Assembly: GCA_000091205.1 (NCBI GenBank)
Contig: AP006495.2
Length of the DNA: 64,000 nt
Reading direction: 5' to 3' (one strand)
Source of the DNA: Cyanidioschyzon merolae
Taxonomy: Eukaryota
Shown here: piece after piece, positions 8,084 through 61,860 of the stretch
Layout: every line of letters starts with the position of its first letter
How positions within the stretch are numbered: position 1 is the first letter of the stretch
Notes under the pieces: model-generated
Databases searched by the model: none
Seen by the model: the letters and a program-made list of their open reading frames with translations, nothing else
What the model was told of the DNA's origin: nothing
Translations under genes and position numbers: made by a program

Positions 8084-9283
8084 TCATTCCAACTTGAACA
8101 GAATCTTTCCCTTTCGATTCGGGGCAAACTGTGCCCGAAAAGCATCCTCATACTGTTCGAGTGTATATTCTTGCTCAACTTGCGGTCGCATATCACCTTT
8201 GCGAATCATTTCAAACGTTTCCTCGAAAATCGTCGGCTTCTGGTTCTTCAACCAAGTTGTAAGCGAGAAACCGCGGACAACGATGCCCTTAAAGATCAGA
8301 TCACTGTTCATGACACACGTCGGTTTGCCGCTCTGCAGCCCGTATGCCATGAAAAGGCCGCCCGGGGAGAGCGCTGCCAGCGCAGCCGAGCCCATCTCGC
8401 CGCCAACAGCGTCAACGACGGCAGCGAGCCCGCGTCCATTCGTTATCGCGTTGAGACGCTCGGCGAGGTTCGGCTCCTCGCCAAAAACGATCACCTCGTC
8501 TGCCCCGAGCTGTTTCAGTTCCGCAACAGATGCTTTCGATCGCACAAAGTTCACCGTGCACAAGCCCCGCTTTTTCGCCAGCTGGATGAACATACGACCG
8601 AGAGTCGAGTTCGCCGCTGTCTGTCCGATCCACGGGTTGCCGTGAACCGGCGCCTCCGCTTCGATCTGCTCCAACATGCCGACCACGGTCAGCGGATTCA
8701 CTATCAATTGAGCGGCCTCTTTATCACCGATATCCTGTGGTACTTTGATACAGAGGTTTTCGTCCACCACGAGGTACTGTTGCCAGCAGCCCGAGCGATC
8801 CGCAAGTGTTGGAATCACACGCGTCCCGACAGGAAGCGAGGTCGCTGGACCTTGCGCCACAACTTCTCCGACACCCTCGAGGCCGCCAACAAACCCAGGA
8901 CGACGTTCGCGCACTGCGGCTACCCCAGGGTACACGCCTTGGACGACAAACACGTCGGCAGGATGGAGGCATGCATACCGCATCTTCACGAGCACCTGAC
9001 CCGGACCAGGCTTCGGGACAGAAGCAGTGGTGTTCAACCTAAGTGCTCCCTTCAGCGGATCGCCAAAACTTACAATTTCCAGAGCTTTCTGCGTTGACGG
9101 TATATGTGTTGCCATAGAGTCTGCAAATCGGTTGCGTCTTCCAGCAACGACACCGCCAGGCCTGTGTCTGGAATCAATTTTGGGGCAGGGAGTGCGCACA
9201 TCAGGCTGGCCGCGTCCACCCGCCACACCTGGACCCGTGCCGCGGTATGCGAATGAATCTGGACTGTGGGAGGCAGCGTGCAT
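8084..9283 (-). CDS. Medium-chain dehydrogenase/reductase resembling mitochondrial trans-2-enoyl-CoA reductase (MECR/ETR1). The likely true start is the internal Met at 9115 (MATHIPSTQKALEI...).
   Basis: MDR-fold collinearity: an N-terminal GroES-like region, then a Rossmann region (AAVVDAVGGEMGSA). The 5' 170 nt of the ORF overlap family I element copy A, which argues for the downstream start. Confidence 0.7.
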   Translation of the reverse strand: MHAASHSPDSFAYRGTGPGVAGGRGQPDVRTPCPKIDSRHRPGGVVAGRRNRFADSMATHIPSTQKALEIVSFGDPLKGALRLNTTASVPKPGPGQVLVKMRYACLHPADVFVVQGVYPGVAAVRERRPGFVGGLEGVGEVVAQGPATSLPVGTRVIPTLADRSGCWQQYLVVDENLCIKVPQDIGDKEAAQLIVNPLTVVGMLEQIEAEAPVHGNPWIGQTAANSTLGRMFIQLAKKRGLCTVNFVRSKASVAELKQLGADEVIVFGEEPNLAERLNAITNGRGLAAVVDAVGGEMGSAALAALSPGGLFMAYGLQSGKPTCVMNSDLIFKGIVVRGFSLTTWLKNQKPTIFEETFEMIRKGDMRPQVEQEYTLEQYEDAFRAQFAPNRKGKILFKLE

Positions 9284-9950
9284 TCGTCAACTTTTTCAAT
9301 CAGTTGAGCGCCTTGAAGGAGGATCAAAGTCAGAGGCTCGTAGTAGCGTACGGAGCAGGGCGCTGGAAGACCCAAAAAGGGACGAGGCCAGCTCCAACGA
9401 CAAGAATGTATGAGGCGTGCACACGGCGTTTCGTTACGATACCGATAGATGAGTTCCGAATATCCTATACACACCATGAACTGGGATGCACACTTCAGAG
9501 GGTCGAGATGGAAACGTGCCAACGGAGCCCTGAGGATATAAAAAAGCACGGACCGCTGACGGAAGAGCAAATGGAAAGGAGGGCGAAAGTTCGTGCATTG
9601 CTTGCACTAGTGAGTACAACCAATGATAGTAAGAAACGTATGGAGTTCGTGAATCGTGACTTTAATCCTGCTATCAATATAAGGAAATGTGTGGTGCTGG
9701 AGACGAGACCTCCAGAGTAGACAAGAGAGAATTTTACTGGACAACCTCTCAAGGTTGAATCATATGAGAAAAAGCTGGAAGCAGTAGTGGGTGACCCGTC
9801 GAACAAGGCCGCGAGGCGTCTGCACATCAGTTGGTGACTTCTTGTCTAGGGCGCGGTTTCTCGCCACTACTGCACACCGCCGGCGACGTCGTTCGACTGC
9901 GAGAGGCGTTCGGCGGTGTACGAGGGGTGTGTGCTTTAAACGCCAAGCTT
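9170..9950 (+). mobile_element. Family I Fanzor/TnpB-like element, copy A. A 5'-truncated 3' fragment running from the RuvC-II region through the zinc finger and RuvC-III into the 3' non-coding tail. Boundaries are approximate.
   Basis: ORF 9247..9720 translates ...RLVVAYGAGRW...TTRMYEACTRRFVTIPIDEFRISYTHHELGC...KKRMEFVNRDFNPAINIRKC. The RuvC-III-like motif NRDFNPAINI sits at 9652..9681. The nucleotide sequence is collinear with copy B, 20386..21200 on the minus strand, including about 230 nt beyond the stop codon. Confidence 0.6.
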
Positions 9951-10162
9951 GTTTCGCTGCTTTTTTTTTGAAAACTCGACCATCGCTGGGACCCAGCACT
10001 GGCAAGGATCAATGCCGTGTGTCTGCGAACGCTCTGTCCTCTAAAAGTTCGTGGTTTCGTCTGGAAATCCAAACGAGCTTCCGTCACGGGCGGGGAACGT
10101 GTCACTCGCTTCGAAGAGGTGAACGCCGTGAACCAGAGGACGGAAAACGGTGCAAGCTTCCT

Positions 10163-14698: not shown

Positions 14699-14819
14699 GG
14701 GTTACAAGAAGGCTGCGTTTGGAAGGGCGCAGCTAGCTTGTGCGCGTTTCGAAATCGGCAAACGTCGAGGGGAAATCGAATGCGTGTCGCTAGGCCGCGC
14801 GCGTCCGTGCACTGCGGAA

Positions 14820-16733: not shown

Positions 16734-17867
16734 TTTGATTCTTGTGAAAGATGTTGTTACCGTGCGCATACACTGTAAAACAGGTCGCCCGTATTCGTTC
16801 CGCGCTTTTCGTAAAGACTCTGGACACACAACCGTAGCACACGTTCTGCACCGGTCTGTTGGGACGTCGTCACCAGGCGGGGGCCTTGTTTGCGTACGCA
16901 AGGCTTAACTTTAGCAATGGCAATGCATTTCGACGCCCAGGTTGCAGCAGCAGATACGAATGGCGCCCTCGGTAGGTGCCCCGCTTGCGTCACGAGATAA
17001 ACAGAAGCGGTATGCATCATCCGATGCGGGGCCTATGTACCGGTCTCAGGGTCTGTATCGAGGACGATACCTTGAACCACGGAGCGCTTCGTGTTACCAG
17101 CACGCCGTCACGTCTCCAGCGAGCAGTTTGTCGGCTGTGGTGCGGATAGGGGGCGCCTTCGCACCGCTCGGCCCTGGCCTCGTGACGCAAAGCCAGTTCA
17201 GAGCGCTGCTGCACCGATTGCAGTCGATGGTGTGCATGGTAAAAAACAGCCGTTATTGGGCAATCGCCAACAAATATCGCACGTTTTCACAGCACAATTG
17301 TGAAGCTTCCCAATACGCAAGCCGTATACGCCGTCACCGTTACCGCCACGAACAGCTACTCCAGACCGAGCAGCGGGGAAATTGCGGTACGCGAGCACCG
17401 ACGCTACCTGCATGTCGTATTGAAACGCAACAGTGGACTGTATGATTTTGTTTCCGAGCTCTGATCTTTTTCCGAGCCATTCTTAGATGTAAAGCGTCGA
17501 CATTCGAAGCGCAGCGAGATGGCTTACGGGCGCATTCGTAGCTTTCGGGTTCTAGATTGTCTTTTTCGAGTGGCTCTCGGTACGCTTTGGTGCTCGAATT
17601 CGTTGCGGCACCGGAATCTAGATGACTCACGACGCCCCCGAACACGGGTTCTCAAACTAACCGGTATCATTATCAGGTTCCTACGTACCAGCATGCACTC
17701 GTCTCCTTTCCGTGCAGGTCGCATGCTCATATGCCACCTGCTGAATGTTTTCGATCTTTCTGATTTATGGTGTAACTCGTGGGCGCAGCCATTCGCGCCG
17801 TTGGATTGACGACGAAATAAATCTTGGACGTCATCGCTTGGCGAGCTGTTCACGAGCGCATGCCGAA

Positions 17868-18576
17868 AGCTCCCTGAGCTCGGCACTTCAAATAATGGAT
17901 TTCGTTCGAAAGACCAATCTCCCGATCTTTGCGGTCATCCACGAAACGGCGTTCGACGGCAGTATGCTACATCTCATTGGATTTTCTCCGAAACGCTCGT
18001 GTATATTCTGTTTGCTTGAACGTGGGTTTTGGACTTGAGTCACCGCTGCGACCGCTTCCGGTGGAGCCTGCGTTATGGATAAGCACGGACGGAGCGTAGA
18101 CGGACCAGAATATCTAGAGCGCTTCTTCAACCTGAATTTTCCTTGCGGTGGTTTTCTTTTATCATGGAAATCATCGCGTTTCACAAATCATTCATGGAAT
18201 AGAGCAGCGTGCACTCGCGCGTGCAGCGGAGAGCGTATTCACCAAAGCTGACTTTCCAGAACATAACTGTTCTCGTCCGGTACTGTATTGGACCTGGAAA
18301 CGGAGAAGGACATGTCCCGAGCGAAAAAGCTCGCTTTCACGCGCCTCAGAGCGGCACTCGGAGAGGGAATTGCGATGCATGTATGTGAAGACCTGATCAC
18401 GACCGAATGGAACCGCTACGAGAGACGCTCCGAAGCAGTGTGCAAAAAAATGAAAATGGGAAGCGACGCATCGTTCGCAACTTCAGCTTCTGCAAGACAT
18501 GCGAAAACGGAAGCTGTAATCCGCAAAATCGGGACTTGAACGCTGCCATCGACATCGTTCGTTTGCCGGCAACGGG
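17868..18576 (+). mobile_element. Family II TnpB/Fanzor-like relic, copy G. A shared 5' module is followed by a degenerate C-terminal zinc finger and RuvC-III. It is frameshifted at an A7 run.
   Basis: The 5' module 17868..18060 is homologous at nucleotide level to 33200.., 37497.., 57460.. and 61085... Translation gives ...EDLITTEWNRYERR..., then after a frameshift ...RNFSFCKTCENGSCNPQNRDLNAAIDIVRL* (motif 18517..18546, stop 18574). Confidence 0.5.
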
Positions 18577-19068
18577 ACCAGGCTGAAAACAGTGACTGAA
18601 GTATTGAAAGCCAAAGATAGACAGGGGGAAAGAAACAAGTTACAGGAAAAGTCCGCAACGGCTAGTGTTGATGTCAGTGGCAAAGGAGTCAAAGTTGAGC
18701 ATGTTCGCTCGAGTTCGTAGATCCGTTCCATTGTACGCCAATGTGGATGTAGTCCTGGGTGTCGTGCGTGCGTGCGCCGTGGAAACTCGTGCCACGGCAC
18801 TTGCGTGTCAGAAAGCGCGGGAACCCGTGGAACGCTTGCTTTCAGAGAAAATCGAGGTTTGAGGCTTTCATCTCTTCACGCCAAGACAGAGATTCCATAG
18901 GTAATTTTTCATTGCAAGGTACGATCGTTTTCACCACGGACTTTCATAGCCAATCAAGTATTTAGCGCTTTCGCGGTACATTTGGACCACGTTTCCGTAT
19001 TCAACTTTTCGTTGCAGTCCAAATAGTGCCGCGCGGTTTGGCGTTGGAGGCGGCTCGGGTAATGTATC

Positions 19069-20405: not shown

Positions 20406-22703
20406 TCAGCTCGATGATGGGGCAAACTTCGCACGAACCAGCAAGAAACGCCGTTCTAAAGTAGAACGTCGTCGGCGGTGTACAGTAGTAGCGACCGGTG
20501 CGCCTTGGACACCAAGTCGCCTACTGACGTGCAGACGCTTCCTAGGCTTTTTCGACCGGCCGCCTACTACTGCTTCCAATTGTGTCTCATATAGTAAAAC
20601 CTTAAGAGGTTGTCCAACAAAATTCTCGCGTGTCATCTCTGGAGGTCTCGTCTCCAACACCGCACATCTCCTTATATTGATGGCGGTAATAAAATCTCGG
20701 TTCACAAAATCCATCCGTTTCGTGCCGTTGGGAGTTGTACTTACTAATGCAAGCAGTCCACGAACTTTCGCTCTCCTTTCCATTTGCTCTTCCGTCAGCT
20801 GTCTATACTTTGCTATATCCTCAGGGCTCCTCTGGCACTTTTCCATCTCGACTCTCTGAAGTGTTAACCCCTGTTCATGGTGTGTGTGCTATGTTCGAAA
20901 CTCAACTACAGGTATCGTAACGAAACGCCTTGCACACTCCTTGTACATTCTTGTCGTTGGAGCTGGTGTAGTGCCTTTCTTGGGCACCCATCGTCCTGCT
21001 CCGTACGCTACGACGAGCCTCTGACTTTCCTCCTCCTTCAGGGCGCTCAACTCATTCAAAAAATTCGCGAACGCCCGCTGCCTCCCACCGTATAGATTCA
21101 TTCGCAAACGAGCCCACGGGGGTTGGTATACTCCTCCCATAGCGCATCCCGGTGCGCCATATGCGAACTTCCATGAATTTCCGGACAGCTCCAAAGTCCG
21201 CTCCTCGGCTCGTCACCTTACTCAAAGCTTCCGGGCGATCCTTCATTCCTGCATTCCGTTTCTCGATTTTCTTCCTCGCATTCATGATTCCCGATTCTCG
21301 ATAGTATCTCGCTCTCGAGATCCTCAAAAAAGACGCATGTCTTTCTGACGCAAGTTACCATCAGCACCATCTTCCGTACGCTTCGGTGCTACGATGGTTA
21401 TGATATTCGTATTCCCAGGGTCCGCGCCAACGACAAGGTCGTTATCCTGCACTTTCTGCGCGGCAGGATCCTCCTCCTTCTCATCTTTATGCATCGCCGC
21501 GCCAACGACAAAGTCGTTAGCTTGCACCTCCTGCGTCGCAGCATCCTCCTCTTTGTTTTCTTCATGCTTCGCCGCGCCAACGACAAGGTCGTTATCCTGC
21601 GCTTTCTGTGTCGCGGGACCCGCCTCTTTGTTTTCTTCATGCTTCGTGACGGGCGCAGCCGATGGAGGGACTGGACGATCTTTCTTCAACCTCCGATAGT
21701 GCACACACATGGCTACTCCATCGGGTTCGATCAACCCAGTGAATACCTTTTGTTTGCTCACTTTCAGACGTTTGAAATCGAAGATGCTCATCCAGTACGT
21801 CTCCCGGTTTCCGCCGGTGAAGTCCTCCCTGCTAACATCGAACTCCGGACAGATATCCCTCGTGATGCCGTAAAGGATTCTGGAGTTGATAGTCACAAAA
21901 TGTGACTTGATCTTGCACATTGGAACCACGTTGAAGTGCTTCCCCATTAGGACAGCCTTCCGTCTCTCCCACTCTTCCTTTGACTCTTCACTCAGCTTCA
22001 TCTCCGCTTTGCGTTCGAGCTCTCGGTCCAGAAACACAAAATAGCGCAGAACGAGGCGATCGTATCTTTCCCTATCTTTTTTCAACGCTGATATCTTGTC
22101 TGTTGGATTCGCCAGCCCCAGTACCGTACGATGCTCTTCGATAACCGCACGGATGACGGAATTCTCATTCGTGCTCTGGTTTGACTCCTTGTTGTCAACG
22201 AATTCGACCTCATTTCCATAGTTTCGATCGTTCGTGATGCCATTGATAATCGCCCATATTCCTTTGCGAGACAGGCCCCGGTAGAGTGCAAACACGGCGC
22301 GTATCATGAAACGTTCGAGGTTCATTCTGAAATGGTTCTTCAGATTCGTCAGGTACTTCATCGCCCCATATGTGTAGATATCCGCGTCACCCCTGTATTG
22401 GGTACCCTCGAAGAGGAATTCCGCGAAGTTTTCGTGGAGGACTTTCACCCGCTCATTTTCCCTCCGCGCTTCCTCTGTACCAAGCATCAGCTGACGAATA
22501 AAGGTCTTATCGAAAAACTCGTCCGGAATCTCGACCGTTTCCATGTTCGTCACGTAGAGGTACATCTCCTTCACCAAATGCATCAGTCCTGAAGATGCCT
22601 TTATCCTACTCATGGGGTACAACTCGAGAAGGTTTTTGATGGCCTCTCGCAACTTTTCCTTGTACGGATCCTTGATATATTTAAGAACACAGACTTTCAC
22701 CAC
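20406..22703 (-). pseudogene. Family I Fanzor/TnpB-like nuclease gene, copy B. It is near full length, about 640 aa in total, but is split into three reading frames by at least two frameshifts.
   Basis: Frame 1, 22703..21324, is 459 aa with an N-terminal helical region and ends in ...[19 protein letters not shown] (RuvC-I-like GxDPG, with the Asp near 21420). Frame 3, 21194..20889, reads RQRAFANFLNELSALKEEESQRLVVAYGAGRW...YKECARRFVTIPVVEFRT. Frame 4, 20846..20406, reads MEKCQRSPED...KRMDFVNRDFITAINIRRC (RuvC-III-like, 20673..20702). Compared with intact copy A, 14 codons (SYTHHELGCTLQRV) are lost at the 20846/20889 junction. Confidence 0.7.
21420..21644 (-). repeat. 75-nt (25-aa) tandem triplication inside the Fanzor-like ORF, immediately N-terminal to the RuvC-I aspartate.
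   Basis: Protein repeats [50 protein letters not shown] and [25 protein letters not shown]. Only the third unit keeps the Asp of GADPG. Confidence 0.6.
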
Positions 22704-23199
22704 TATCTCGTTGTACAGTTGTCTTTCTTGCCGCCTTCGACGTAGAACCTCCCCCTTTTTGAATCTTCATCACTTCCTGTTCCTCTTTGCTCCGCCTTGT
22801 TTATCTTTTTTTCCGGCAGCGGGTGATATCGGCCCTCCGGGATCCTCCACTTCCATTTCCATGACTTTCCTTTTAATTTTTTGAAAACGAACGCTCTTTG
22901 AACGCTTCTGTTATATACTTCGAAAAAACACTTGAATATACTCAATTGAGGGTCGGAATAGGATGGAACAGAAAACCTATACTTTGCTACGACCTCAACG
23001 CGAATACAACTTTTACAGTAGAATAGCACGCCAATGATCAGGATCACTGTTCCCCTCAAGAGCGACCAGAGCGTCGTGTCTCGTGCCCGCCGGATCTGCC
23101 AGGTGCGCGTGCACGCGCAGCGGCTGACCTGCGCCCCGCCGCCGATCAGGAGATTGCTTCTGGATATGTCTATCTCAAAGCGTGATAACCTGTTGCTGA

Positions 23200-25569: not shown

Positions 25570-27000
25570 GTAGAGGCGCTTCTGTTGATAGTCTTTCAAC
25601 TCAATTTTGTTTCATCGCGGCTACGGTATATAGGAGGAGGACGAAATCACTAGGTAATGTTCTGTATAGATTGTCGACGAATTGCATACGGCATATGTAT
25701 TCTTCACTGAACAATGCAATGATGATTGCATTGCTCCTCGATGTCAACCATACTGCTATACTCAGATGCTTGACGAGCACTGAAAGAAACAAGTATATGC
25801 GCTCCGGGCCGAAACCTGATATTCTCAAAGCCTGCTTGCAATCAGTGATAGAAAACGACCAGTTGATCAATTTAAGGGAAGCAAATGCGTCCATAGTAGC
25901 CACCACGGGCGTCTCTGTTTCTCAACAGCTTATTCGCGTGATCCTGAAAACACCGGGATCCAATCGCAATAAAGTGCTAGTTCATTCACGGCCAGCTTCC
26001 ACCGAAATCGCAGGCACGGTGTTCCTGGAACGTCGCGATCGGTATGAAGCACAGGAACATCAGTTTGTTTTCTCACTCGATGAGACTTGCTTCAAACGAG
26101 ACAATCGCAGTGCAGATGAATACTTGCTGAGCGGGAGCCCGTTGCACGTACGCTCGAAATCGTAGAGAACGTCGACATCATCATCTGTTCTAGCTGCGGT
26201 GGATTCATTTGGCTGCCTCAGTTCCGCTGAAGAGAACACTCATGCAGCAGCGCCCTCTTTTTGTCGAGTCATCGAAGACTTGTCCCAAACGTCTGGTGAA
26301 GTCCTTCTATTGGACATAGTGGTATTTAGCCATTCTGCTTCAGTTCGAGCATTTGCCAATTCTATCGACGGGTAGAGCTGGTTTCATTCCTTCTTCTCAC
26401 CTGTGTTTCATTCCCATAGAAGGAGAGTTTTGCGTCCTGAATCGTCACGACCGCTCCACCGGGCGAATAGATGAAGCGTTCAGCACATGGTGACCAACCG
26501 GGGCACATTTGGTCTTTATTCCGCATGTGCTGCTCGATGCGGGAAGGTCGTCATCTCAGGCTATAAACAAGTGCGTTCATTTTCGAAAAATCTAAGGGAC
26601 GAGCTGGAATATACACCCTAGGATGTTGAGTTGGAGCGAGGCCAGCGGAGCGTTTCGTCGACGGATCAGCACGAAGAGCTGACAGAGCACCCAATGGCAC
26701 AGCGTGCACGAGTTCGTGGTCTCCTATCATTGGTGAGATCAACCAGCGGCAACAAACGCATGGAGTCCATGAACCGAGACCTCAACGCTGGTATCAATAT
26801 CAGGAGATGCTTGTGCTGAATGCGAGGCACGCAGCGCTGCGGCAAGCTAACTTTGTTGGGCAGCCTCACAGCGTCGGAGTGTATATGGAGAAACTGAAAC
26901 CGATACCAGAACCCTGTAAGAAAAGGCTGAGAGACGTCTGCGGGTGGATATTCATTTACACGATATTGTGGCGAAACGGGTTTGCTGCACTGACGTAACG
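25570..27000 (+). mobile_element. Family I composite element, copy C. An IS630/Tc1/mariner-like transposase N-terminal fragment is fused to an internally deleted Fanzor 3' module.
   Basis: ORF 25671..26165 reads ...GPKPDILKACLQSVIENDQLINLREANASIVATTGVSVSQQLIRVILKTPG...RRDRYEAQEHQFVFSLDETCF, an HTH followed by the first DDE-type Asp context. ORF 26631..26819 reads ...KRMESMNRDLNAGINIRRC (26772..26801). The 3' conserved block 26938..26995 ends ...TTGCTGCACTGAC and is truncated. The whole copy is collinear with copy F at nucleotide level. Confidence 0.6.
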
Positions 27001-27106
27001 TTGTTCGCTTCGGCATTCGCGCTGTTATCTGCTCCCGAGCAAACCGCGAAAAGCAGGCAAAATCCCCTGGTTGCACGCCTGCAGCCAACTTAAGTGGTGA
27101 ACATAG

Positions 27107-32645: not shown

Positions 32646-33189
32646 ACCCTAGGCGTGACAACTCGAGTGCTTCGAGGCGCTCACTGGTCGCCTCGAGGTC
32701 AGCAGGCAGCAGACAAGCTGAGCTAGCGTTCGTCGAAGAGCGGCATACGCTTCATACGTATCCGAGTGAAGTGCACCACGGGATGCTGTGCTTTGTTCCT
32801 ACATCTCGGAGTATTTTCCGAACGAAAGTTTAGATGTGCAAAGTCGGCTTTCGACGTGCAAAAAGTAAGAGCTTACGGACGCATACAAGTAGCCTCAGGA
32901 TTCATGTCACGCTGTTCGACGTGGCTCTTTCGACGCTTTGCCGCTGGAATTCGGTACGTGGCCGGAATGAGGACGTTTCACGCCTCCTTCGAACTAGTTT
33001 TCGTGAAGCAAAGGATATCAATCGTCAGTCCATATGGATAAGCCTCCGGTCTTCTCCGTTCCTTATGTGCAGGATGTTCAAATCGCGCGTGCTTCAATTT
33101 TATGGATCTCTCGCTAAGGAACGTTATAGGCGATGTGGGATTGAAGGGGAATCCAAAAGCGGGGCGTCATTCCAGGATGCGTTCTTCGC

Positions 33190-37496: not shown

Positions 37497-38245
37497 AAGT
37501 TTACTGAAATTGTCACGTTATGTAAGCGATCTCGCTCGAGCGGCAAAAGAATCCTCCTCTGTCTGTGGCCCTCGACAAAACGGCATTCGACACCAGCAGC
37601 ATGATACCTCGAACGAGATATGCTCCACGAGGCGCCCGTATCCTCTGTTTGCATGAACAAGGATCACGGGCTCGTACTAGAGTCATCGCAACGATCGCTT
37701 CCAGCAGAGATCCTCTTAGCGCTCTGCACGTAAGGGCGCAAAGTTTGAAATTTCACGACTTGTTTTCCTTCCGGCACTCGTTTCCTCGTGGACAACGACG
37801 CTTTCCAAAAATGTTCTACCGAGTCCAACAGGATGCGCTTGCACTCGCAGCGAACAGAATACTCGCCTAGCGGATCGCCCAGAACAAGCCCGCTTTCGCA
37901 GGAGCGGCACTAAGCGCGGCAGCGGAGGATCGGAACTAGGCGCGCTTCCTGTACCCGTTATGGGTTTGCATTGAGCGATAGAGCAAACGTTGATGCAACA
38001 CAGGGCTGCCCCCGGAGAGCGCTTTGGTGTCCATACGGGAGCACCCGCCAATTATCAAAAGTAATCGCTGCGACCAGTGCTCCATGACTGTTTACAAAAG
38101 ACGATGAAGGTTGCTGGCGATGCGTAGAGATTACAACTGCCGTCTGTGTATAAAGTTCGTCGAGAGATCAGCGTGAAGCGGCAAAATCGCGGCGTTAACG
38201 CTGTGATAACCATCTCTCAACTGCTGACCACGGAGCTGGCGAGAC
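37497..38245 (+). mobile_element. Family II TnpB/Fanzor-like relic, copy K. Highly degenerate.
   Basis: 5' module 37497..37740 homologous to the other family II copies. Downstream are YNCRLCIKFVERS and, after a frameshift, KRQNRGVNAVITISQL (38185..38223). Confidence 0.4.
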
Positions 38246-39142
38246 AGGAGCGACCGGCGTATTGAATACCACGGATAAGAGCGTATGAAAGGAAGCAGTC
38301 ACAGAAAAAGCCCGTCAAGACTAGTGCTGATAACAGTGGCAAGCGATACATATTTTAGTCAGTGCGCGCGAATTCGCAAAGCGGACCCCTTCTACTCTGT
38401 CCTGACTTGTATTTGTATAAAGAAGTAGTGAACACGTCGCCCGAGTCAATGGAGACGCGGGAGTCGCGAGCTGCTGTTTCCATAGCGAACGTTGCAAGCG
38501 ATGCGAAAGGCACCACTTCGCGCATAGATATCCAGGTTTGCACTTCGATTCTTCAGAAATGAGCGGTCTCATCCCGTCGTTGCGGAAGTAGTACACTGAT
38601 TCTAGCTTCCTCCAGTAGGCTCCAGGTACGAAGCAGCCTATGCTTTGGGAAAGGTGTTCGACCTTTGGACCCGCAGTCGCTTTTGAAACCTGCTAGCAAA
38701 GCCGCTCACCGCATACGAAGCCGCGTATTCTCTGCGAATAAAAAGTCCGACGTTCAGGCATGAAACCGTTTCGAAACTTTCCAGCGGAGCCTGCATTTCC
38801 AGTAGAACTCAACGAGACGCTAAGACCGGCTACATATATGGCTGGGTACTCGCCCGGTTAGCAGGTACGCTCGCTGAACCTGTGCCCGTTCACGACGCGT
38901 TTCAGTCCCTAGCGCTTGTCGACAGCGGTGCTCGTGAGCAGCAGCTCGTTACAGCGCACATTCAATGAGACATGTAGACTGCTGCAGTCCCGAGCAACGC
39001 CCTTGCCAAGTAACGGGTACCGAGATCCACCGTTTGTACTGCCGCAGCGCCTTGTCGCTGACGTCCAGCTCGCTGGAACCCAACACCGCTTTCAGGGCGA
39101 GCGCGGCGACGCCCTAGTTCGCGTTCCAGCGAGCCGGTCTCT

Positions 39143-44887: not shown

Positions 44888-45229
44888 GGTTTTTTATCCG
44901 CTGCATATTCGTGCTGCTAGCTTTGAAGCGAAATGAGGTCTAAATAGGCGGCTTTCGAAGAGAAAACAGCGACGACTACACGAATGCGGATACAGATACC
45001 CACTTGTACTAATTGTACCAATATTAAGGTCTATTAGATCCCATTTGTAGAGGATGTGATGGGTGCCGCACCCCGCACAGGTCCAGCGGCCGCGTTTTCG
45101 TTGGATACGCTCGCGTGCGCTCGGCCACCGGGGAAGCAACGAAAGCGCGCTCTATGTTCCTTCATGTCAATGGTACTCCATATCCTGGTGCGTCTCATCA
45201 TATGCTTTTTTGCGGTTTATAGAAGATTT

Positions 45230-45761
45230 GTTCGAAATGCATTCATTTGAAGAAACAGAGAGAATCCAAGGAAAATTATAGACTGAAATTCGGGGATCCA
45301 GAAGGGCCCTCATCACCGCGTTATACCAGCGAACGAAAAATCCCCTAGTCGCCGACCATCGAGCGAAGAGGAACAAGTGACGAAGAAGCGGAAGCAAAAG
45401 GGAGATAGTCGCCAAAACGGTGATCTCTCGACCGGACGATGACCAGACTCTAGAGGCACATAGGGAACGAGAACCAGGAATCCATGCAAAGGTGACTTCA
45501 ACAGGAGCGAAGAAACGCAAAGAGTTCGTGAGCCGCGACGGAAACGCTGCTATCAATAGCAGACGATTTGCGGCGCTGAACGCGAGAGCCGACGAGCTGA
45601 TGCGATCCAAAATTGCGAGGCAGCGTCTCAGGATCCATGTGTGCCTGGATAACACTGACCCCGATACCAGGATGCGGGTGGAAACACACTGGGAGGCGTC
45701 TGCGCGCGGGTACTCATTTTGCCTCCATTGTCATAGAACGTTTATCGTTTTCCTGACCATA
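45230..45761 (+). mobile_element. Family I element, copy D. A 3' fragment followed by TA.
   Basis: ...KKRKEFVSRDGNAAINSRRF (45531..45560). Terminal block GTCTGCGCGCGGGTACTCATTTTGCCTCCATTGTCATAGAACGTTTATCGTTTTCCTGACCATA, then TA at 45762..45763. Confidence 0.55.
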
Positions 45762-47916
45762 TATGGGCAATCACGAATGGGCAAACCGCTGTTCTCGAAG
45801 AAGCGACAGGTGAGCAAGACCGCTGCATTAGCCAGTACGGCTATTTGCACGGGTGATCGCCTACAAATCGCCAAACATACCGGAGCGCTTCGCATCGCAG
45901 GCAACGTAAAAGCAATGTGTGGCTTCTGTTTGCGACATTCTTCTATTCTGCTCTATGACGACGTCGATTTCCATCACGAATGAGCTGTCAAGGAGTACGT
46001 GACAAAAACTGCTCTCGAGCTGCTCCTGGTGAGACCCTTTTTTTCCGATTCAAGCCAGTCGAAGGCGACATCTCTGTTGCCAAACACCGTTTTTGAAGCT
46101 CACGGATCCATCGACGAGTCGTCCGCATCCATGACACTGTCATCCGACGAATTGCTCTTCGGAAAGTCATTCTCTTCCTGAACCATTCCTGAGCTGGTGT
46201 CTCTCAGCTATGCTTGTTTGCGGGAGGGAGCGAAAATGCGCGCCTCGGTCCGTGAACATCGCCCTTGGGAGCCGCTAAAGAGATTGATGCTCAGGAATCG
46301 TGGAGATATATGTAGGAGAAACAGAGTTCTGGAACAAGTTCCACTCAGTGCGTCGAAGGAGATGCTTTAAACGCTCCAGACAGCACATGAGACTCTGTTC
46401 GATTCGCTTGCAGTTTCGGTTGTATGGAGGCAAGAGTCAGGCATTCGCCAACTTGTGCGATAACTTGCAAAAAAGCAAATGGTCGATATCTCGAGTTGTC
46501 ATGCTGTAGTCAATGGCACTGGACGTGCAGTAACGCGCGAGCGCTGCACTCCGATTCCTTTGACGACAGCGTACATGGAGTGCAGGAATCGGCGCTTTCA
46601 GATTTCCTTCCATGAGTTCAGGACGACACCATTGCATCACGGGCGCGGGTGCATGTTGAATCAGGTACAGATGGAGAGCGTGAAACGGATCCGAATGCAC
46701 GAGATGGTGCTCACTAAGCTGAGCGGACGCCAGCTGACGGGGCGATCCCAGGTCCAAGGCTTGCTGTGAGGTGACGCTACCAGCAAACCTGCACACAAGC
46801 ACGTTCTACACCGAGACCCAAAACGCCTCGACCATCATCCGGGGATATCTTTTGCGTCCGAAGCATCCAGCGGCCATATGTCGAGCAAGCCTTCGAGGGT
46901 ATCGTTTGGTGATCAGTGTGGGCATTTTGCTGAAACGCGGAAGGCATGCGATGAAGAAAATCAGTAACCAGGAGAGAGGGGAATGGATTCTTTCGGGAGC
47001 GAGGCACTGGTATTGGACGGTCAGCGATCGAGCACGATTGATCACTATATACATCCGCAACGATTTTCCTTGGCAACTAGTGAACATTAGCAATGTTCAA
47101 TTACTCGATATCACCGTGCATATGCTCGACGCGAACGGCCGTACGATCGCCCCAGACTGCACTGTTACCGTACGACGTTCGTGGTAGCGTCTCCCGCGCT
47201 TTCGCAAGCGATCAGATTTCGCGAGACACCTACCGGGAAGCCTGATCCAGCCTCTACATCATGCCTGGATTCTGGACTGGGGATGGAGGAACGAGGACGC
47301 ATCACCATGTGCGGGGCGCTCCATACTCAACAAACTGGAAGCTTTTGCGCATCCGTCGGAATCTGGTCCGATGCACTGATCCAGTACACACTAAAATAAA
47401 GCAGTGACGATGGAGGGCGGTGCCTTTGACACCGTAAAGCTCGCTTGACAGCGACCGCATGGACAAGAGGGTGAAGTGCGCGGTTCCGCGGCGCGCTCGC
47501 CACGGGAAATGGCGCCCCAAGTGAAAAAGCGGTCAGAACACGTGCTCATACAAGGTCGAATGCGTTGGTTGCTCCCTCGGTTACCGACCAAAACCGCTTA
47601 CCACGATGGCACTTTGCATATCGATGATGTTTATCCAACGTTAGTGACAATGACGCAGTGCAGCGAATCATCTAGAGAATATATCTCTGGTTCCAGTGCA
47701 GACACGCCATCATGAATGCATTCAGTGATGCCCGTCACAATGCGCTTCGCTGGGAACACGCTATCCCCATTCGATGAAGCGCGGTACGGCAGGCCACGTA
47801 GACCTTGAAAACCCTTGCATTTGCTTGGCGCTGCAACACGAATCCGTTCAGGCATCGGAAAAGTGAACCGCTGCAATTCGGCATAGCATGCAGACCTTGA
47901 ACGCTGTCACGAGACG

Positions 47917-49044: not shown

Positions 49045-49419
49045 CTAGGCAAAGAAGCGCTTTTTCTTGTCCCCAGCGCCACCTGCTCTGCGCTCGGGAG
49101 CTTCTGGAGACTATGAATGAAAAGCACGCACAGCACGCTCCTCGGCTCGCAGCGGTTTACCTGAATATTTGGCGTAGCTGTAGTGTGAGCACGTTTTACA
49201 CGCAAAAAAACCTCAGGAAAAGCGAACGTGATAAGTTGTCACGTTACATGGAAATCCGTGTTTCCGTTGATAGACTGCTTTGGGTAGCTTTATGTCATGG
49301 GGATCTGTTTGTGATGCGGCGACGACGACGACGACGACGCGCGCGGCATCTCGTACGGATACACGCTTGCAGTATTTCATCTCAATTGGGTTCCATCATC
49401 ACGCACGTGTCGTCAAATG

Positions 49420-49979
49420 CTATTTCGCGGTTTATTGCAGAGACATTCAAAGCGCGTTCCGTGGAAGGAATAAAACATCCCAGGGGAATGCACGGACCAA
49501 GTCGGGGACCCCGAAGGATCGTCCTCGCCAGGTGCCAGAAAAAACGAAAAATATCCTCTTGTCATCGAGTTTAGAGCGAAGAAGAGCAAGTGACAAAGAA
49601 GAAAAAGATGATGATTCGTGTTGGTAGGCGATTCAACGTGTACGCACGACGGAACGATGACGAGACTATGGTGGCACAGAGGGAACGAGTGCTAGGAATC
49701 CTTACAAGGATGACTTCAAGCATCCTCAATGCACGCAGTGAGCTCGTGAACCGCGACTTGAACACTGCTATCAATACCAGACGATTTTCGGTGCTGAACA
49801 CGAAACCCCAAGAGCTGACGCGAGCCAACTTCGTGGAGCAGCCTCTGATACTCAAAATGTGTAAGGAGAAGCTGGAGCCGATAGCAGGCGGCCGGTCAAA
49901 AAATGGTTGGGTGACGTCTGCGGGTGGGTATTCATATACCCTACATGATCGTGCGAAAACTTTTGTTTCAGTGACCACA
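49420..49979 (+). mobile_element. Family I element, copy E. A 3' fragment followed by TA. Its right end lies 50 bp upstream of the next gene's ATG.
   Basis: ...SELVNRDLNTAINTRRF (49749..49778). Conserved terminal block GTCTGCGGGTGGGTATTCATATACCCTACATGATCGTGCGAAAACTTTTGTTTCAGTGACCACA, then TA at 49980..49981. Confidence 0.6.
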
Positions 49980-50028
49980 TAGTGCATGTGAATAAATCTG
50001 TTCTGATGTATAGCTCTTCGGGATCCGC

Positions 50029-55146: not shown

Positions 55147-55929
55147 CGTGTCTGAAAGGTGCCTATAAAAAACGTTCTCGCGCGCGAGCAAGGCGACGAA
55201 CGCTCAGCGCAAGGTCGTCGTCGACAAGTGCGTGCAGGCGTACGCGCGCCGGCTCGCGCTTCGATCGCTGGCGGGTTCCAGAGGGCGCGTATACCGCTGG
55301 TGCCTGCCCGGCGCCTTGGCTGGCTGGATCGCCCCAGGTCGACTGCCTCCCAGCCGCTCTTGCTATCTTGTCATTGGTGCAGGGTCGATGACGCGTACGA
55401 GACCCGCCGGATTACGCTGGCGTAGCCGATGATGCGTACACGAACTGCGCCAAGAGCCGTTTGATGCTCGTGCGTACCACGACGCCTCGAGGGGTGTCGC
55501 TTTGAAAAAGGCACGCTCAATAGGTCAAGCGGGTGTCTGGATGCCGAACTAAACACGTCAAGCTCCGCGGTGGATCCGGTGGCACGCTCAGTGCAAGGCG
55601 CGGTTGCCACACGCAGGCCAGGATACCAAGCAACTGTGAACAGTTCGCGCGCTTCCCAGCTTGAGATATTTTTTGGAACACTTTCTTCGATGTGCAGTCT
55701 CGATATCCAAAGTGGAACAGTAGGGGCTAACGAATGCCTCAATTGTTTTAGGAGCCTCGACCGTCCTTTCGAAGTTGCCTTGCTGCTAGAGCTTGTTGCG
55801 TCACCGAAATGAAAATGATTCGCAATGCCTCCGAACAAGGATTCGTAAACGAACCGATAGCTTTCTTTCATTCATCCGGACACGCCTCCACTATTCTCCT
55901 TTTCTGACGTGTGAGATGGTAAAATCATG

Positions 55930-57389
55930 CATTGTTCAAATGTTCGATCTTTATTTTTCAACTCAACTCGATCCTATCCACACTGACTGCAGTCGCATGC
56001 TTTCTCGCACTGTATAGCAGCAGATCAAGATCAAGATGCCATGTACCATACAGACGGTAGAAGAATTGCCTATAGGATCCATTCTTTACTGGACAGTGCA
56101 AGGGGATTGCATTTCTATCTCAGGTCAGTCATGTAACAGTACTCAAATTGTTGAAAGACTCGGCAAGAAAGAATAAGATGCGGTCAACGCCAAAACCGAT
56201 ACGCTTACGGACCGCTCGCGGTCCATGGTAGGAAAACGACCCGTTGATTACCTTACGGAAAGCAAAAATCAACGATAGTGTACACCACCACTGGCGTCTC
56301 TGCTTCCCAATAGCTTGTTCGTGTGGTCCTGAGAACACCTGGAAACACTTGTAAAACAGTCCCAGGTCATGCACGGCCATTCGCCACAGAATTCGCAACT
56401 GCAGAAGAGTTCCCGGAGCTTTGCGATCGGTATGAAGCAAATGGACAACGCTTTATTCTTTCAGTCGGTTCGATCTGCTTCGGACGAACCAGTCGGAGCT
56501 TGTATGGGTATTCGCATCGAGGCAGATCGTTGTATGTACGATCGAACTGGAAGCGAACGATGGCGCCATCTGTTCTAGTTTTAATGGGTTCATTGAGCGA
56601 CCTCTGTCTTGCTCGTGGAGCAGAAACATCCAACAGCACCAACCGCCTTGTCGAATAATAGAAGACTCTTCGCTGACGTACGGCGACTTTATTGGTCAAC
56701 GTGGCATTTGACAATCCGCCTTGCGTTCGAGCTTTTGGGAATTCTATCGGAATAGAGCTGATTTTCATTCCTCCGTACGCTCTTTAATTCAACCGCAACG
56801 AAAGAGTGCTTTCTACTGTGAAACGTAATCATCGGTCCACCGGGCGAGTCGCCGAAGCATCCAGCACACTGTGACACACCCGGGCACATTTCGTGGTCCT
56901 TCCGCAGGTCCTTCACCTTTGGGGAAGGTCCTCACCTAAACGCATAAAATAGTGCATTCATTTTCAGGAAATAAAAAATCGATGGTATGAGTTTGGATGC
57001 ACACTTCAGAACAAAGAGATGGAGAAGAGCCAGCGGAGCGCTTCGGTGATAGAAAAGCACCGAGAGCTGACACAGAACCAAATGACACAGAGTGAACGAG
57101 TTCTAGGAATCCTTGCATTGGTGGGTTCACGCAGCGACGATAAACGCATGGAGTTCGTGATACGAGACCTCAACGCTGCCATCAATATCCGACGATATGC
57201 AGAGCTGAAGACGAAACCCGCAGAGCTGTAACGATCCAACTTTATGAGGCGACCTATTAGGATCGAAGTTTGCAACGAGAAACTGAAACCGACAACAAGC
57301 AGCTGATCGAAAACGACTGGGTGGCGTCTGCACGTGGATACGCATCTACCCTACATAATCGTGCGACAATTTTTGTTCCACTGACCACA
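55930..57389 (+). mobile_element. Family I composite element, copy F: a Tc1/mariner-like N-terminal fragment plus an internally deleted Fanzor 3' module. Followed by TA.
   Basis: Nucleotide sequence collinear with copy C. ORF 56323..56658 reads ...LRTPGNTCKTVPGHARPFATEFATAEEFPELCDRYEANGQRF... ORF 57019..57231 reads MEKSQRSASV...KRMEFVIRDLNAAINIRRY (57160..57189). Terminal block GTCTGCACGTGGATACGCATCTACCCTACATAATCGTGCGACAATTTTTGTTCCACTGACCACA, then TA at 57390..57391. Confidence 0.6.
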
Positions 57390-57459
57390 TACCATGTCTG
57401 AATAACTTTTTGGCGTCCTCCTGTGACGACTCGTCGGCAAGCTCACGCAGAAATTTCAC

Positions 57460-58300
57460 TGAACTTGTCAAGTCAAATACTCGATTCCATTTGAAAGACA
57501 ATGCCTTCTCACTTGGTTGCTATCGATGGAACCACGGTCGACTTCAGTTCGACAAATCCCGGGAGATACGCACGCAGTGGCTGTCTTCTCTTGTATTTGC
57601 GTGGAAAAGGTCTGGGGCGCGGACTCTAGTCACAGCGGTGATCTCTTCGGGTGCAGCGTGCGTCACGACTTCGCATGGGCGGAGCGTAGACGAATCGAAT
57701 TTTCTCGACTTGATCTCCAGCATGGATTACCATACCGGCGCTCGTTTCATCATGGACAAGCTTGCGTTCCACAAATCCTCTTTCGAATGGGACAGCGTGT
57801 GCTTGGTCGTCCTACGGATATTGAGTTCGCCACGGGCATCGCCCTAAACAAGTCCATGATCGTTGGGTCCGGCAACTGGCTGGCGCGGAAACCTTCCAGG
57901 ACGTCGCGGGGAGCCTTCTGGATCCGTCACGGGCCTGTGCCGGGCGATGCAGCGAGCGGTCACGCACCGCAGGGCGCCAATCTGAGGACGACAAATGGAG
58001 AATACACTCGAATGCCTGACTACCGACGAGTGGCACTGCTACGAAAGGCGCATCCGGGCTCTATACAAACAAGCGAAAAACGGCTGGCGAGGCGTCGATC
58101 GCAGCATTCGCCTGTGCATGGAAAACATGAAAAACATTCGAAAACAGCGTGATCAGGAGTTTAGCGCTGCCACGAACATCTTGCGACTGCTGAAAAAAGA
58201 GCTGGAAGCACAGGAGAGACTGGGGCATTTAAAACCTGAAAAAAGATACCCTCAAAGGGAACAGTTGGAAAAAGTCTGCAAAGGCTGGCATTGATAAAAC
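57460..58300 (+). mobile_element. Family II TnpB/Fanzor-like relic, copy I, about 70 bp downstream of family I copy F.
   Basis: 5' module homologous to copies J, K, G and H. ORF 57995..58294 reads ...LTTDEWHCYERRIRALYKQAKNGWRGVDRSIRLCMENMKNIRKQRDQEFSAATNILRLL (RuvC-III relic about 58145..58192), collinear with copy H. Confidence 0.5.
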
Positions 58301-58743
58301 CGGGAACAGACTCAAACTTTCGTTCACGCGCCCGAGCTGGCGTGCCCGTTCCGCTGAGTTTTCACCTGGGTGCTTAGCTCATGCACGAACGCGCTAGGAC
58401 TCGTTCAGAAAACGGACCCCTCTACAGACGCACCTCATGGAAAACCCCATGCTCACCGGGGCGCCGTCTTACGTCTCAACCCAATGCTGCCTTTTGCTGC
58501 GTTTCGCTCTCCAATCAACCTACGCCTCAGGCGATACGCCCATGAGCGCAGGTAACAAACCTACAATCGAAGCGTCTAGGCAGCCGGCAGCGTTGCGGTC
58601 GAGAGGGTGTCCCCGTGTCGCTCGGCCAATATCGTCCATAAATATACAACATAGAACAACCCATGAGGCTCCAGCTCCGATGACCTGCCTGCGAGCGATC
58701 CATTCGGCGTGCTTCCTGCGCGAACGATACCCGTCGAACAGCA

Positions 58744-59343: not shown

Positions 59344-59534
59344 CAAGCGATTTGTACAGTATTTGCGCTACGTTGTCCTTTATCCGGCATCGATCCGAGA
59401 ACGGGTAACGCAGGGCAGAGCGCTCACCGAGAGGTATTCGCGTGCGTGCGCACGTGTATTCCTGGTGTGTCGTCTCCGAGCCGCCACCATGAACCGCGCA
59501 CGCTTCAGCTTCCTTCGGATGCTCATTGCCGCAG

Positions 59535-60329
59535 CTATCGGGCACTTTGCTGAGATACCAAGGTGCTTAGACCACCGTCTACCGCCAAGACCTGCCCCGT
59601 GATGAACGGATTCTCTATGAGCAGGACAATGGCGCTCGCCACCTCTTCGGGACGTCCGATTCTACCTAGCGGATGAAGCACTTCGCTTGCTTTTCTCGAT
59701 GCTGGTCGCTCCGTGATAAACGATGCAAGTGGCGTCTCCGTCATACCCGGTGCTACACAGTTGACGCGGAGTCCACGCGGTGCGAACGACGCGGCTGCAC
59801 TACGGGCCATGCCTATCACCCCGGCCTTTGCTGCTGCGATCGCTTCATGGTTCGGTAGCCCGTGCATGCTCACAGCACTTGTACAGAGAGTAACACTCTT
59901 GTTCACCGGACCGTCTCCCGTGGACTGGCGGAGGCGCGGGAGTTGTTTACAGGCCGCTCGCAGGACGTAAAAGGCGGAAGCAGTATTCAGCTGTAGCGTT
60001 TCCTGCAACAGCTCGTCGGAGACTGAGGTTATGGGCTTCAAAACGATAGAACCTACGCAGTGCGTCACGTGGTCCAGCGTCCCGTGCTGATCCAGCGCCT
60101 TTTTAAACGCTTCCTCAACCGCTGCAGACTGCAAAATATCCGCAGCGTGAACAGTCGGCGCGCCTGTGTCGCTAGGGCGCGACCCACCGAGCTCGCCAGC
60201 GAGTTGGTCCAGTTTCTCCTTGTTTCTTGCGACTAGAACTAGCTGGTGGCCTCGCTTATGAAGTAAGCGAGCCGTAGCAGCCCCAATTCCACCTGTCGCT
60301 CCGAAAATAATCGAGACTGGACCGGCCAT
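59535..60329 (-). CDS. Short-chain dehydrogenase/reductase (classical SDR). The ORF is open upstream to 60737, which may be a presequence or non-coding.
   Basis: MAGPVSIIFGATGGIGAATARLL (TGxxxGxG). Later catalytic region ...SAVSMHGLPNHEAIAAAKAGVIGMARSAA (YxxxK-like context A..AK). PG motif NCVAPGMTETPL. Confidence 0.75.
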   Translation of the reverse strand: MAGPVSIIFGATGGIGAATARLLHKRGHQLVLVARNKEKLDQLAGELGGSRPSDTGAPTVHAADILQSAAVEEAFKKALDQHGTLDHVTHCVGSIVLKPITSVSDELLQETLQLNTASAFYVLRAACKQLPRLRQSTGDGPVNKSVTLCTSAVSMHGLPNHEAIAAAKAGVIGMARSAAASFAPRGLRVNCVAPGMTETPLASFITERPASRKASEVLHPLGRIGRPEEVASAIVLLIENPFITGQVLAVDGGLSTLVSQQSAR

Positions 60330-61084
60330 GGCAATGTGAAACAGGGAATAGTCTCTGAAAATGAACGTGATTGCTCTTGAGCTTGATCTCGGCACTGGCC
60401 GATGCGGCCGCGATGCAGCAGGTGCTTGCATTTGCTCGGTTTTCGAGAACTTCGGGTCTCGCCAGCTGCATTGATCAAGAACAGCGACACCAAAGCATGG
60501 CAAGCCAGGTACATATGCTGACCACGAAAGCGTTCGGACAGCCGGCAGCGAGGATCCCGAGTTCAAGAATTGTCGCTCTGGACCAAGGCGCTTGAGAGAG
60601 GTCCGCGCCTCGAGGCTGAACGTGTGCTGGACCTGCGTTGCGTCAAAATGGAACACTAAAATGCTCGCTCTCTTCCTGTCTTTCGAGTTTTCCCAAAATT
60701 TCTCACGTATTCTGCATCGATATTCGGAATGGAGCAACTGCGGCTCATGGAATCAAATAAAGCATTAGGATTCTCGGTAGTGGGTTCAGGATGGATTCTT
60801 CGACTTTTTGCCGCTTGAGTTCGTGATGTCATCGGGATCGAGATACTTCGCGAAGCGAACGAACGTGGTGTCGTAAAATAATCGATATCGTCATCCGATT
60901 CAGGAGTATACGTCTACGCACGTGTCCGCTCCGTACGAGTTGCGTACCCGAATCAAACAGTCTTGAAGTTTTCGCTTTTCTAGATGCAAAGCGAGTCGTG
61001 TGCACAGCGATTCGCGTCGCTGGATTGACGAGGAGGAAAGATGAGCGTCGTCCCCTGATGACTTGTTAACAAGAACATGTCGAA

Positions 61085-61860
61085 AGTTCGCAGAACTCGT
61101 CACGTCAAATAATTGATTCCAGTCGGAAGGCAAAGCTTCTTCACTCTGTGCGGTAATCGACGGAACGGCACGCTACAGCAGCGCGACACGTCTCCGGGGA
61201 TAAGCTCCCAGACGCTCTCATCAGCTCTGTTTGCATGGGATAGGTCTAGGACGCTGACTTGAGTCATAGAAGCAATCGCTTCTTTCGAAGTGTTCGTCAA
61301 CGCTTTGCACGAAGGAAGCCTTGACGAAATGATACTTCTCGAGTACAGCGCCAACATGGATAATCCGTTCAGTCGGTTAGCTCGTCATGAATAACATCGC
61401 GTTCGACAAATTCTCTATTGACTGGAACAGTGCGCCTGCAGCCGACGTAGTACTCGCCGAGGGAAACGCTCAGACAAAGTCCGTGATCGTCGGCTGCGGC
61501 ACCGGATGCGGAATGCGAAAAGGACATCGCAGGGAGACTTGCATATCCACCAGGGGTAAGTATGGAGCGATGAAGGAAGCGGTGACGCGCCATCAGGCGG
61601 CATTCGGAGAATGAGGTGTGATGCACATATGAGAATCCACGACCAAAGCCAAGTGCCATCGTTGCGAGAAGCGAACCAGGGAAATATACAAAGAAGATGA
61701 AAATGGCAAGCGAAGCGGAAATCGCAACCGTGGGCTTTACATGTCACGCGTTGACAATAGCAGGAATCAGCGTAATCGGGAGTTTAAAGCCGCCATCAAC
61801 ATCCTTCGATAACTGTCAACGGATTCAGAGGCACAGGAGGGACGGATCCAGTGAACTCGA
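61085..61860 (+). mobile_element. Family II TnpB/Fanzor-like relic, copy H.
   Basis: 5' module 61085..61330 homologous to the other family II copies. Downstream translation gives KCHRCEKRTREIYKEDENGKRSGNRNRGLYMSRVDNSRNQRNREFKAAINILR* (motif 61774..61809, stop 61810). Confidence 0.45.

Follow-up and report, generated by a model that had tools for sequence, protein, structure and literature searches.

The 64,000-nucleotide (nt) stretch of contig AP006495.2 from Cyanidioschyzon merolae, a red alga, that was analysed here (hereafter the window) carries 14 transposon relics. Two are copies of the Fanzor1 family CMe-1A, and the other 12 belong to two chimeric families, F1 and F2, in which a DDE transposase is joined to the tail of a Fanzor1 gene. 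We propose, with a probability of about 0.8, that old bursts of DNA transposons, specific to the Cyanidioschyzon lineage, left the relics behind as eroded remains, that the relics are now dead, and that their excess on the plus strand is due to chance.

Relics were detected by DNA self-comparison, iterated DNA profiles (nhmmer), six-frame protein comparison and protein profiles built from database relatives; F1 and F2 are our own names for the two repeat families found by self-comparison of the window. Pfam models matched only stitched or consensus translations of the relics and gave no match on their single open reading frame (ORF) pieces. The plus strand carries eleven relics and the minus strand three. 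Together they cover ~15.4 kb or 24% of the window, and they take up about 43% of the non-coding DNA in it. The first-pass annotation had counted eleven TnpB-like relics in the 64 kb, ten of them on the plus strand, and gave the range as 9170-61860. The repeats are real, and this range holds 11 plus-strand relics and 1 on the minus strand, but the whole window holds 14 at 11:3. The TnpB-like label suits the C-terminal Fanzor/TnpB piece (zinc ribbon and NRDxNAAINI) present in 13 of the 14 relics, the exception being 2-409, but 12 of the 14 belong to the two families built around a Tc1/IS630-type DDE_3 transposase. Several of these 12 are short copies or small fragments with only part of the chimeric structure, among them three ~600-bp copies (6778-7367, 45161-45765 and 49371-50005) that have only the two ends of F1 and are called F1-short. 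The relics are as follows.

2..409, minus strand: 5' part (transposase N-terminus) of an F1 chimera that continues past the window edge (nhmmer F1 model 86-496; transposase profile 1-43 at 209-337).
6778..7367, minus strand: F1-short, with an internal deletion and both ends kept (F1 model 1183-1501; matches 45161-45765 and 49376-50005; CMe-1A nt 2842-3084 at 67%).
9207..9919, plus strand: 3' fragment of a CMe-1A Fanzor1 (C. merolae Fanzor profile 531-722, E=8.5e-92; 81% identity to 20466-21109).
17407..18749, plus strand: F2 copy of 1343 bp, inverted repeats included, flanked by TA at each end (nhmmer; terminal repeat and flank coordinates).
20430..23110, minus strand: near-full CMe-1A copy without the TE-N2 part, a Fanzor1 pseudogene of 2.7 kb (CMe-1A DNA identity; ORF pieces; Fanzor profile 19-722).
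25585..27005, plus strand: full-length F1 chimera (transposase profile 11-238; Fanzor profile 616-679).
32753..34129, plus strand: F2 copy of 1377 bp (nhmmer; terminal repeats).
37067..38413, plus strand: F2 copy of 1347 bp that the ENA strain contig L001 has too (nhmmer; terminal repeats).
45161..45977, plus strand: F1-short with a weak transposase fragment at 45753-45977 (self-comparison, six-frame comparison, protein profiles).
46330..46979, plus strand: Fanzor1 fragment (C. merolae Fanzor profile 505-649).
49371..50005, plus strand: F1-short, its 5' 90 bp similar to CMe-1A nt 789-878 and its 3' tail to nt 2904-3084 (DNA matches, profiles).
55697..58372, plus strand: F2 copy split by an F1 insertion (F2 model 1-307 and 323-1230 flank the insert; 3' repeat at 58344-58372).
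55950..57401, plus strand: full-length F1 chimera nested in the preceding F2 copy (F1 model 86-1503; 67.8% identity to 25629-26959).
60630..61999, plus strand: F2 copy of 1370 bp (nhmmer; terminal repeats).

In the F1 family, a DDE_3 transposase that is decayed but complete precedes the last ~125 codons and the 3' end of a CMe-1A-type Fanzor1. Its consensus scores 73.9 bits against DDE_3 (profile positions 4-136; motifs DETCF, LDNVAFxH and PPYAPWFNRIE), and the family has in this respect the transposase of Tc1/mariner/IS630 elements, of which F2 covers only part. The Fanzor component of F1 is restricted to profile positions ~605-722, the RuvC-I DPG motif and the N-terminal domains being absent, and the first ~90 bp of F1 match the CMe-1A segment that lies directly upstream of the Fanzor start codon. 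The F1-short copies look like non-autonomous elements of the miniature inverted-repeat transposable element (MITE) type.

The F2 consensus was built from 30 distinct copies, and its restored reading frame starts MYSLDIRSAAIRAY. Its transposase part has a helix-turn-helix and, of the catalytic motifs of a Tc1/IS630-type DDE_3 domain, the first two, both Asp motifs (AIDETAF and FIMDNIAFHKS), the last one being missing; what follows is the C-terminal third of a Fanzor1 (YRMEQRALARAAD, VIVGYGTGRGNGGGH, TTVKCHRCEG, FRLCMKCV and RNRDLNAAINIL). Both parts score above the Pfam cut-offs: 39.4 bits for DDE_3 (profile positions 3-96 of 146) and 30.7 bits for Cas12f1-like_TNB, the model of the TnpB zinc ribbon. 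The helix-turn-helix models of Pfam stayed below threshold on the consensus of F1 and F2. The Fanzor part of F2 spans only profile positions ~520-690 (RuvC-II strand, zinc ribbon and RuvC-III), without the RuvC-I DPG motif and the N-terminal domains. F1 and F2 carry Fanzor-derived fragments and not Fanzor genes, and since RuvC-I is absent from both, they could not have made an RNA-guided nuclease. F2 ends in a terminal inverted repeat of ~25 bp (CACCCGTGTCAGATTAAAATGGAAC), and TA stands on both flanks in the consensus of the 30 copies and at the window copy 17407-18749. Among the 30 copies, TA is kept at 11 and 12 of the respective ends, where about 6% would be expected by chance. F2 has thus the inverted repeats and the TA target-site duplication that characterise Tc1/mariner/IS630 elements.

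An intact protein with a comparable composition exists outside the window. P0002, of 449 amino acids, is encoded by ORF 516-1865 of L002 (Logan SRR33769809), a contig from a sequencing run unrelated to the window. Its residues 1-239 match transposases of ~300 amino acids and residues 232-449 match the C-termini of Fanzor1 proteins of 500-850 amino acids, so that the C-terminal half of a Fanzor1 follows an IS630-type helix-turn-helix and a DDE_3 core of which the first two thirds are present. It was the only intact chimera found; the best 150 hits, out of 1.84 billion representatives, included no other chimera. Its ORF has 44-48% GC (59% upstream), and no inverted repeats surround it within its 2-kb contig. 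The intact transposases closest to F1 and F2 are P0003 and P0004. Neither the first F2 consensus nor P0002 had a meaningful sequence match among solved structures. The profile search with P0002, which split into a transposase half and a Fanzor half, led us to drop two other interpretations, namely that F1 is nothing but a Tc1 relic whose TnpB motif is accidental and that IDETAF is the RuvC-I of a small TnpB. The view that the short F1 copies are 5'-truncated was also dropped, their 5' ends matching the 5' segment of F1 and CMe-1A. F1 and F2 are best read, from their sequence, as independent internal-deletion derivatives of parents with a mariner/Tc1-type transposase and a Fanzor1; since no intact parent of either was found in the sequences examined, this is a parentage that we infer.

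The two remaining relics belong to a family that is already described. CMe-1A was reported as a Fanzor1 family of about 150 copies, along with about 70 copies of TE-N2_CMe (Bao and Jurka 2013; PMC3627910); it was published without inverted repeats or target duplication and was left unclassified (PMC3627910). It is the same element as the 3.2-kb WSV486-like repeat of Nozaki et al. 2007 (PMC1955436). Taking about 80% or more DNA identity to the 3169-bp consensus as the mark of membership, positions 20449-23110 (85% to consensus nt 658-3169) and 9245-9893 (87.7% to nt 2506-3153) are CMe-1A copies, while the tails of F1 reach only 67-72% identity to nt ~2740-3088 and F2 has no DNA match to the consensus. 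Only the relic at 20430-23110 has a complete split RuvC with a zinc ribbon before RuvC-III (GADPGNTN in RuvC-I, LVVAYGAGRW in the RuvC-II region, NRDFITAINI). It is interrupted by at least 3 frameshifts and is therefore a Fanzor1 pseudogene; it has no entry among the NCBI proteins. Within its Fanzor1 ORF, at 21422-21646 and just upstream of RuvC-I, are three 75-bp tandem units that encode KHEExKE..P..QxVQDNDxVVGA; their number differs among CMe-1A copies (one in the published consensus, four in P0423). The TE-N2_CMe part alone (CMe-1A nt 1-635) is common at other, metagenome loci (e.g., L072 21243-21883, L064 12596-13204, L082 14189-14821), with no such solo copy in the window, where the CMe-1A copy begins at consensus nt 658.

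Every full copy that we examined is broken: among 45 full-length copies of F2 and 6 of F1, no ORF exceeds 218 amino acids. F2 copies share ~73% identity with their consensus and ~56% with one another, a pattern that points to a star-like old burst. We also compared the window with three other strains (contigs L001, L028 and L024, 97.6-99.5% identity). The presence/absence polymorphism for which related strains were to be checked did not appear, as every covered relic is at the same place in all three. Between strains, genes differ by 3.6 substitutions per kb, relics by 11.0 and other intergenic DNA by 8.5; since relics diverge at least as much as other intergenic DNA, they show no constraint. 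An apparent relic rate of 53 substitutions per kb was discarded as an artefact, because within the element L024 and L028 go over to a paralogous CMe-1A copy, and this region was left out of the final estimate. In these two JGI contigs, L024 11318-12550 and L028 1-2135 align to window 20446-22953 with ~98% identity at the flanks and then, inside the CMe-1A copy, with an 80-83% paralogue. In L024 the switch is located at the 75-bp repeat array. It is either an assembly chimera or ectopic recombination between CMe-1A copies.

The distribution of the relics among spacers differs by spacer type. As the first-pass annotation had stated, relics are close to start codons, their ends being 22-790 bp away; the relic at 49371-50005, for example, ends about 100 bp ahead of the ATG at 50104. 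Its statement that one relic overlaps the 5' ends of two divergent genes arose from the use of maximal ORFs: the annotated helicase starts at 10163, not at 9791. That nearly every long interval holds a relic is borne out by 9 of the 10 spacers longer than 1.3 kb, but this occupancy is partly circular because the relics themselves lengthen the spacers, which shrink to the size of relic-free ones once the relic is removed. The exception, spacer 50953-52676, has no detectable relic and no match to other loci. None of the 6 convergent (3'-3') spacers of the window has a relic, against 10 of the 14 divergent or tandem ones (Fisher p=0.011). Scanning metagenomes with CMe-1A-type Fanzor genes as anchors yielded 420 matches and 80 loci and provided 40 distinct loci of at least 9 kb, where relics occupy 15/33 divergent, 21/44 tandem and 9/49 convergent spacers (convergent 9/49 vs others 36/77, p=0.0012). 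Relics therefore favour promoter-containing spacers. Together with the inverted repeats and TA flanks of F2, this depletion of convergent spacers supports the earlier suggestion of an insertion preference for promoter-proximal TA sites in the case of F2. Insertion preference and selective loss cannot be separated with spacer occupancy data.

The enrichment in promoter-bearing spacers could also have arisen if the host had co-opted the relics as promoter or untranslated region material, with selection keeping both their orientation and their proximity to start codons. In seven relics the 3' end does lie 22-790 bp upstream of a co-oriented start codon (22 bp for relic 6778-7367, upstream of CMM099C; position 27005 precedes the Sm protein E gene), and the 3.2-kb repeats are transcribed (Nozaki et al. 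2007; PMC1955436). However, nine relics face a start codon with their 5' end and seven with their 3' end, tandem spacers show no significant orientation of relics relative to the flanking genes (4:4 in the window, 16:7 elsewhere), and the relics change between strains three times faster than genes and no more slowly than other intergenic DNA. We thus regard co-option as very unlikely. The same orientation counts and divergence, with the proportion of same-strand neighbours given below, leave selection on orientation, which had been raised as an explanation of the strand bias, without support.

The plus-strand excess itself is less marked than it had seemed. Over the whole window the 11:3 split gives p=0.057 (two-sided binomial). 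Within 9170-61860 the test gives p=0.006-0.012, with a boundary picked after the fact: two minus-strand relics (2-409 and 6778-7367) sit just before the start of this range, which exaggerates the excess. At the 40 independent loci, the other relics are split 32:23 relative to the anchor element (p=0.28), and adjacent relics share the strand in 30 cases and differ in 25 (p=0.59). The excess in the window is most likely sampling noise. A strand bias is not established, and short of a full-genome count a weak effect is possible.

Several observations weigh against our reading of the relics as transposon remains scattered and oriented by chance. The transposase and Fanzor halves of F2 are one base out of frame in the consensus, which makes the ancestral F2 product uncertain. 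The boundaries of F1 are sharp but show only a weak inverted match at the ends, and its single nested insertion, in the F2 copy 55697-58372, shows a target deletion of ~65 bp of F2 and no clean duplication. The window has ~1 relic per 4.6 kb vs 1 per 10.7 kb in the flanks of the other loci (Poisson p=0.008), although window copies served to train the DNA models, so that relics are more easily detected there. The comparison loci come from hot-spring metagenome strains and not from 10D, were chosen for a Fanzor copy and have no absolute chromosome strand. As to orientation, all five F2 copies of the window are on the plus strand, consecutive F2 pairs outside it are 7 same to 2 different (p=0.18), and with four loci added (44 in total) 38 of the 64 adjacent pairs of relics share the strand (59%; 38 same to 26 different, p=0.17).

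The twofold higher density could reflect local duplication, or local hopping, in this chromosome segment, in line with the local tandem-like amplification proposed by the first-pass annotation. Duplications do occur: within 23200-29192, CMM108C, the Sm protein E gene and the PGES2-like gene each have a paralogue of at least 90% identity elsewhere in 10D (CMQ418C; BAM79869 and BAM79868 on the 739,753-bp chromosome), which suggests a segmental duplication that possibly included relic 25585-27005. Yet the F2 copies of the window, with a mutual identity of 0.56, resemble copies at unrelated loci just as much (0.55-0.58), which excludes local amplification, and self-comparison of the window gives only 65-81% between copies, with no duplicated flanks. 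A local origin of the cluster is the least credible of the explanations that we considered. That such a density is unusual for C. merolae is also an outdated notion. In 2007, 253 copies of the 3.2-kb repeat were described, making up about 5% of the genome and "distributed randomly on all chromosomes" (Nozaki et al. 2007; PMC1955436). The copy numbers of 2013 followed (PMC3627910), and in 2023 repeats were put at 12.7% of the genome vs 0.59% in the sister genus, the enlarged intergenic regions being credited to them (Cho et al. 2023; PMC9812998).

The orientation data have another candidate explanation, in which the strand bias is real: insertion or retention would be tied to a regional property such as replication-fork direction, giving same-strand domains tens of kb long. 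The run of nine consecutive plus-strand relics from 25.6 to 62 kb, the uniform F2 copies and the leaning towards same-strand neighbours elsewhere are in its favour. A precedent exists in bacterial IS200/IS605 elements, the home of TnpB, whose insertion orientation is coupled to replication direction. Several points argue against it. The replication samples are not significant on their own, and their small same-strand counts are inflated by decayed copies split into several same-strand pieces (e.g., L090). The relics show neither a Y1 transposase nor subterminal hairpins, while the inverted repeats and TA flanks of F2 are typical of double-strand cut-and-paste elements, for which we know of no strand coupling. 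To this are added the marginal test of the whole window, the range chosen after the fact and the description of the 253 Fanzor-type repeats as randomly distributed (PMC1955436). A real bias is thus improbable, if less so than co-option or local duplication. We give equally low odds to its narrower form, a domain effect on F2-type mariner/Fanzor chimeras whose orientation would be linked to a regional property such as replication direction; if true, it would be a eukaryotic echo of the strand coupling in bacterial TnpB-carrying elements.

Chance orientation of dead transposons remains the reading that we prefer, together with the following history. Two relics are CMe-1A Fanzor1 copies and the rest members of the non-autonomous F1 and F2 families, which would have arisen by internal deletion of mariner/Tc1-type elements carrying a transposase gene and then a Fanzor1 gene. 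F2 moved by cut-and-paste into TA sites, as its ends show, and F1 would have done the same. Copies would have persisted where they were least harmful or where chromatin was open, i.e., in promoter-containing spacers and not in coding DNA or short 3'-3' spacers. Now dead and drifting neutrally, they underlie nearly all the long spacers of the window.

The genes around the relics are ordinary. The window contains 20 consecutive annotated proteins of C. merolae 10D (BAM80970 to BAM80989 of the 866,983-bp chromosome, first locus tag CMM097C), a density of one per 3.2 kb that is usual for this genome. An exact protein match was obtained for 19 of the 20; the look-up of the alcohol dehydrogenase ORF 8084-9283 (start at 9283) gave none, and BAM80973 was assigned to it by position. 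The HSBP1-like ORF 54877-55146 also had no exact match, so that the starts of these two ORFs are provisional. Functions supported by Pfam include an asparaginyl-tRNA synthetase, a UvrD helicase, an M16 peptidase, eRF1 and a P-type ATPase. No tRNA gene and no telomerase-RNA template motif were found in the window. Two ORFs that the NCBI protein set of 10D lacks, at 50104-50952 (plus strand, weakly similar to a methyltransferase) and 62976-63443 (minus strand), are intact in many metagenome strains and may therefore be genes that escaped annotation. CMM103C and the gene for the mitochondrial processing peptidase are separated by a divergent spacer with two direct repeats of ~115 bp, 77-81% identical (14806-15039).

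The density of Fanzor-related repeats in the intergenic DNA of C. merolae was already known. What is new is that most relics of the window belong to two mariner-type families with a DDE transposase fused to a Fanzor1 tail, one of them with clear inverted repeats and TA, and that relics avoid 3'-3' spacers. These families offer the CMe-1A-related sequences a plausible transposase partner. Given that relics cover ~24% of the window, the figure of "0.7% transposons, eight class II elements" for C. merolae is a large underestimate. The results matter for genome annotation and for the use of C. merolae spacers as promoters, and open no new mechanism; the strand bias, the sole part that could have been surprising, is the one that is not established.

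Comparison with known systems places the relics as follows. Relative to CMe-1A, those at 20430-23110 and 9207-9919 are copies (85-88% identity to the consensus), and F1 is homologous to it in its tail (nt ~2740-3088) and in its first ~90 bp (nt 789-878); the other 12 relics belong elsewhere, to the transposase-containing F1 and F2, which are absent from the two studies that described the repeat (PMC3627910 and PMC1955436). F1-short resembles the MITE-like deletion derivatives of Tc1/mariner elements in keeping both ends without most of the coding interior; unlike them, it still holds a remnant of the Fanzor C-terminal coding sequence, and any inverted repeats are putative. A survey of MITEs had listed none in C. 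merolae (PMC3964958). With the bacterial IS200/IS605 elements that carry TnpB, the relics share the homologous C-terminal zinc ribbon and the RuvC-III motif NRDxNAAINI, but no TnpA-like ORF was seen in them, and F2 has inverted repeats and TA in place of subterminal hairpins, so that they do not classify with IS200/IS605. A further parallel is with PUl-1 and PUl-2 of Pythium ultimum, described as mariner-type Fanzor1 elements (PMC3627910, Additional file 1), which have a TA target duplication, inverted repeats of 24-33 bp and two genes on the same strand, first a DDE transposase and then a Fanzor1. F1 and F2 differ from them in being internally deleted and decayed in all copies: F2 is without the third catalytic motif and the N-terminal two thirds of Fanzor, and F1 is without about 600 Fanzor codons. 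The layout of PUl-1 and PUl-2 is the one that the parents of F1 and F2 would have had.

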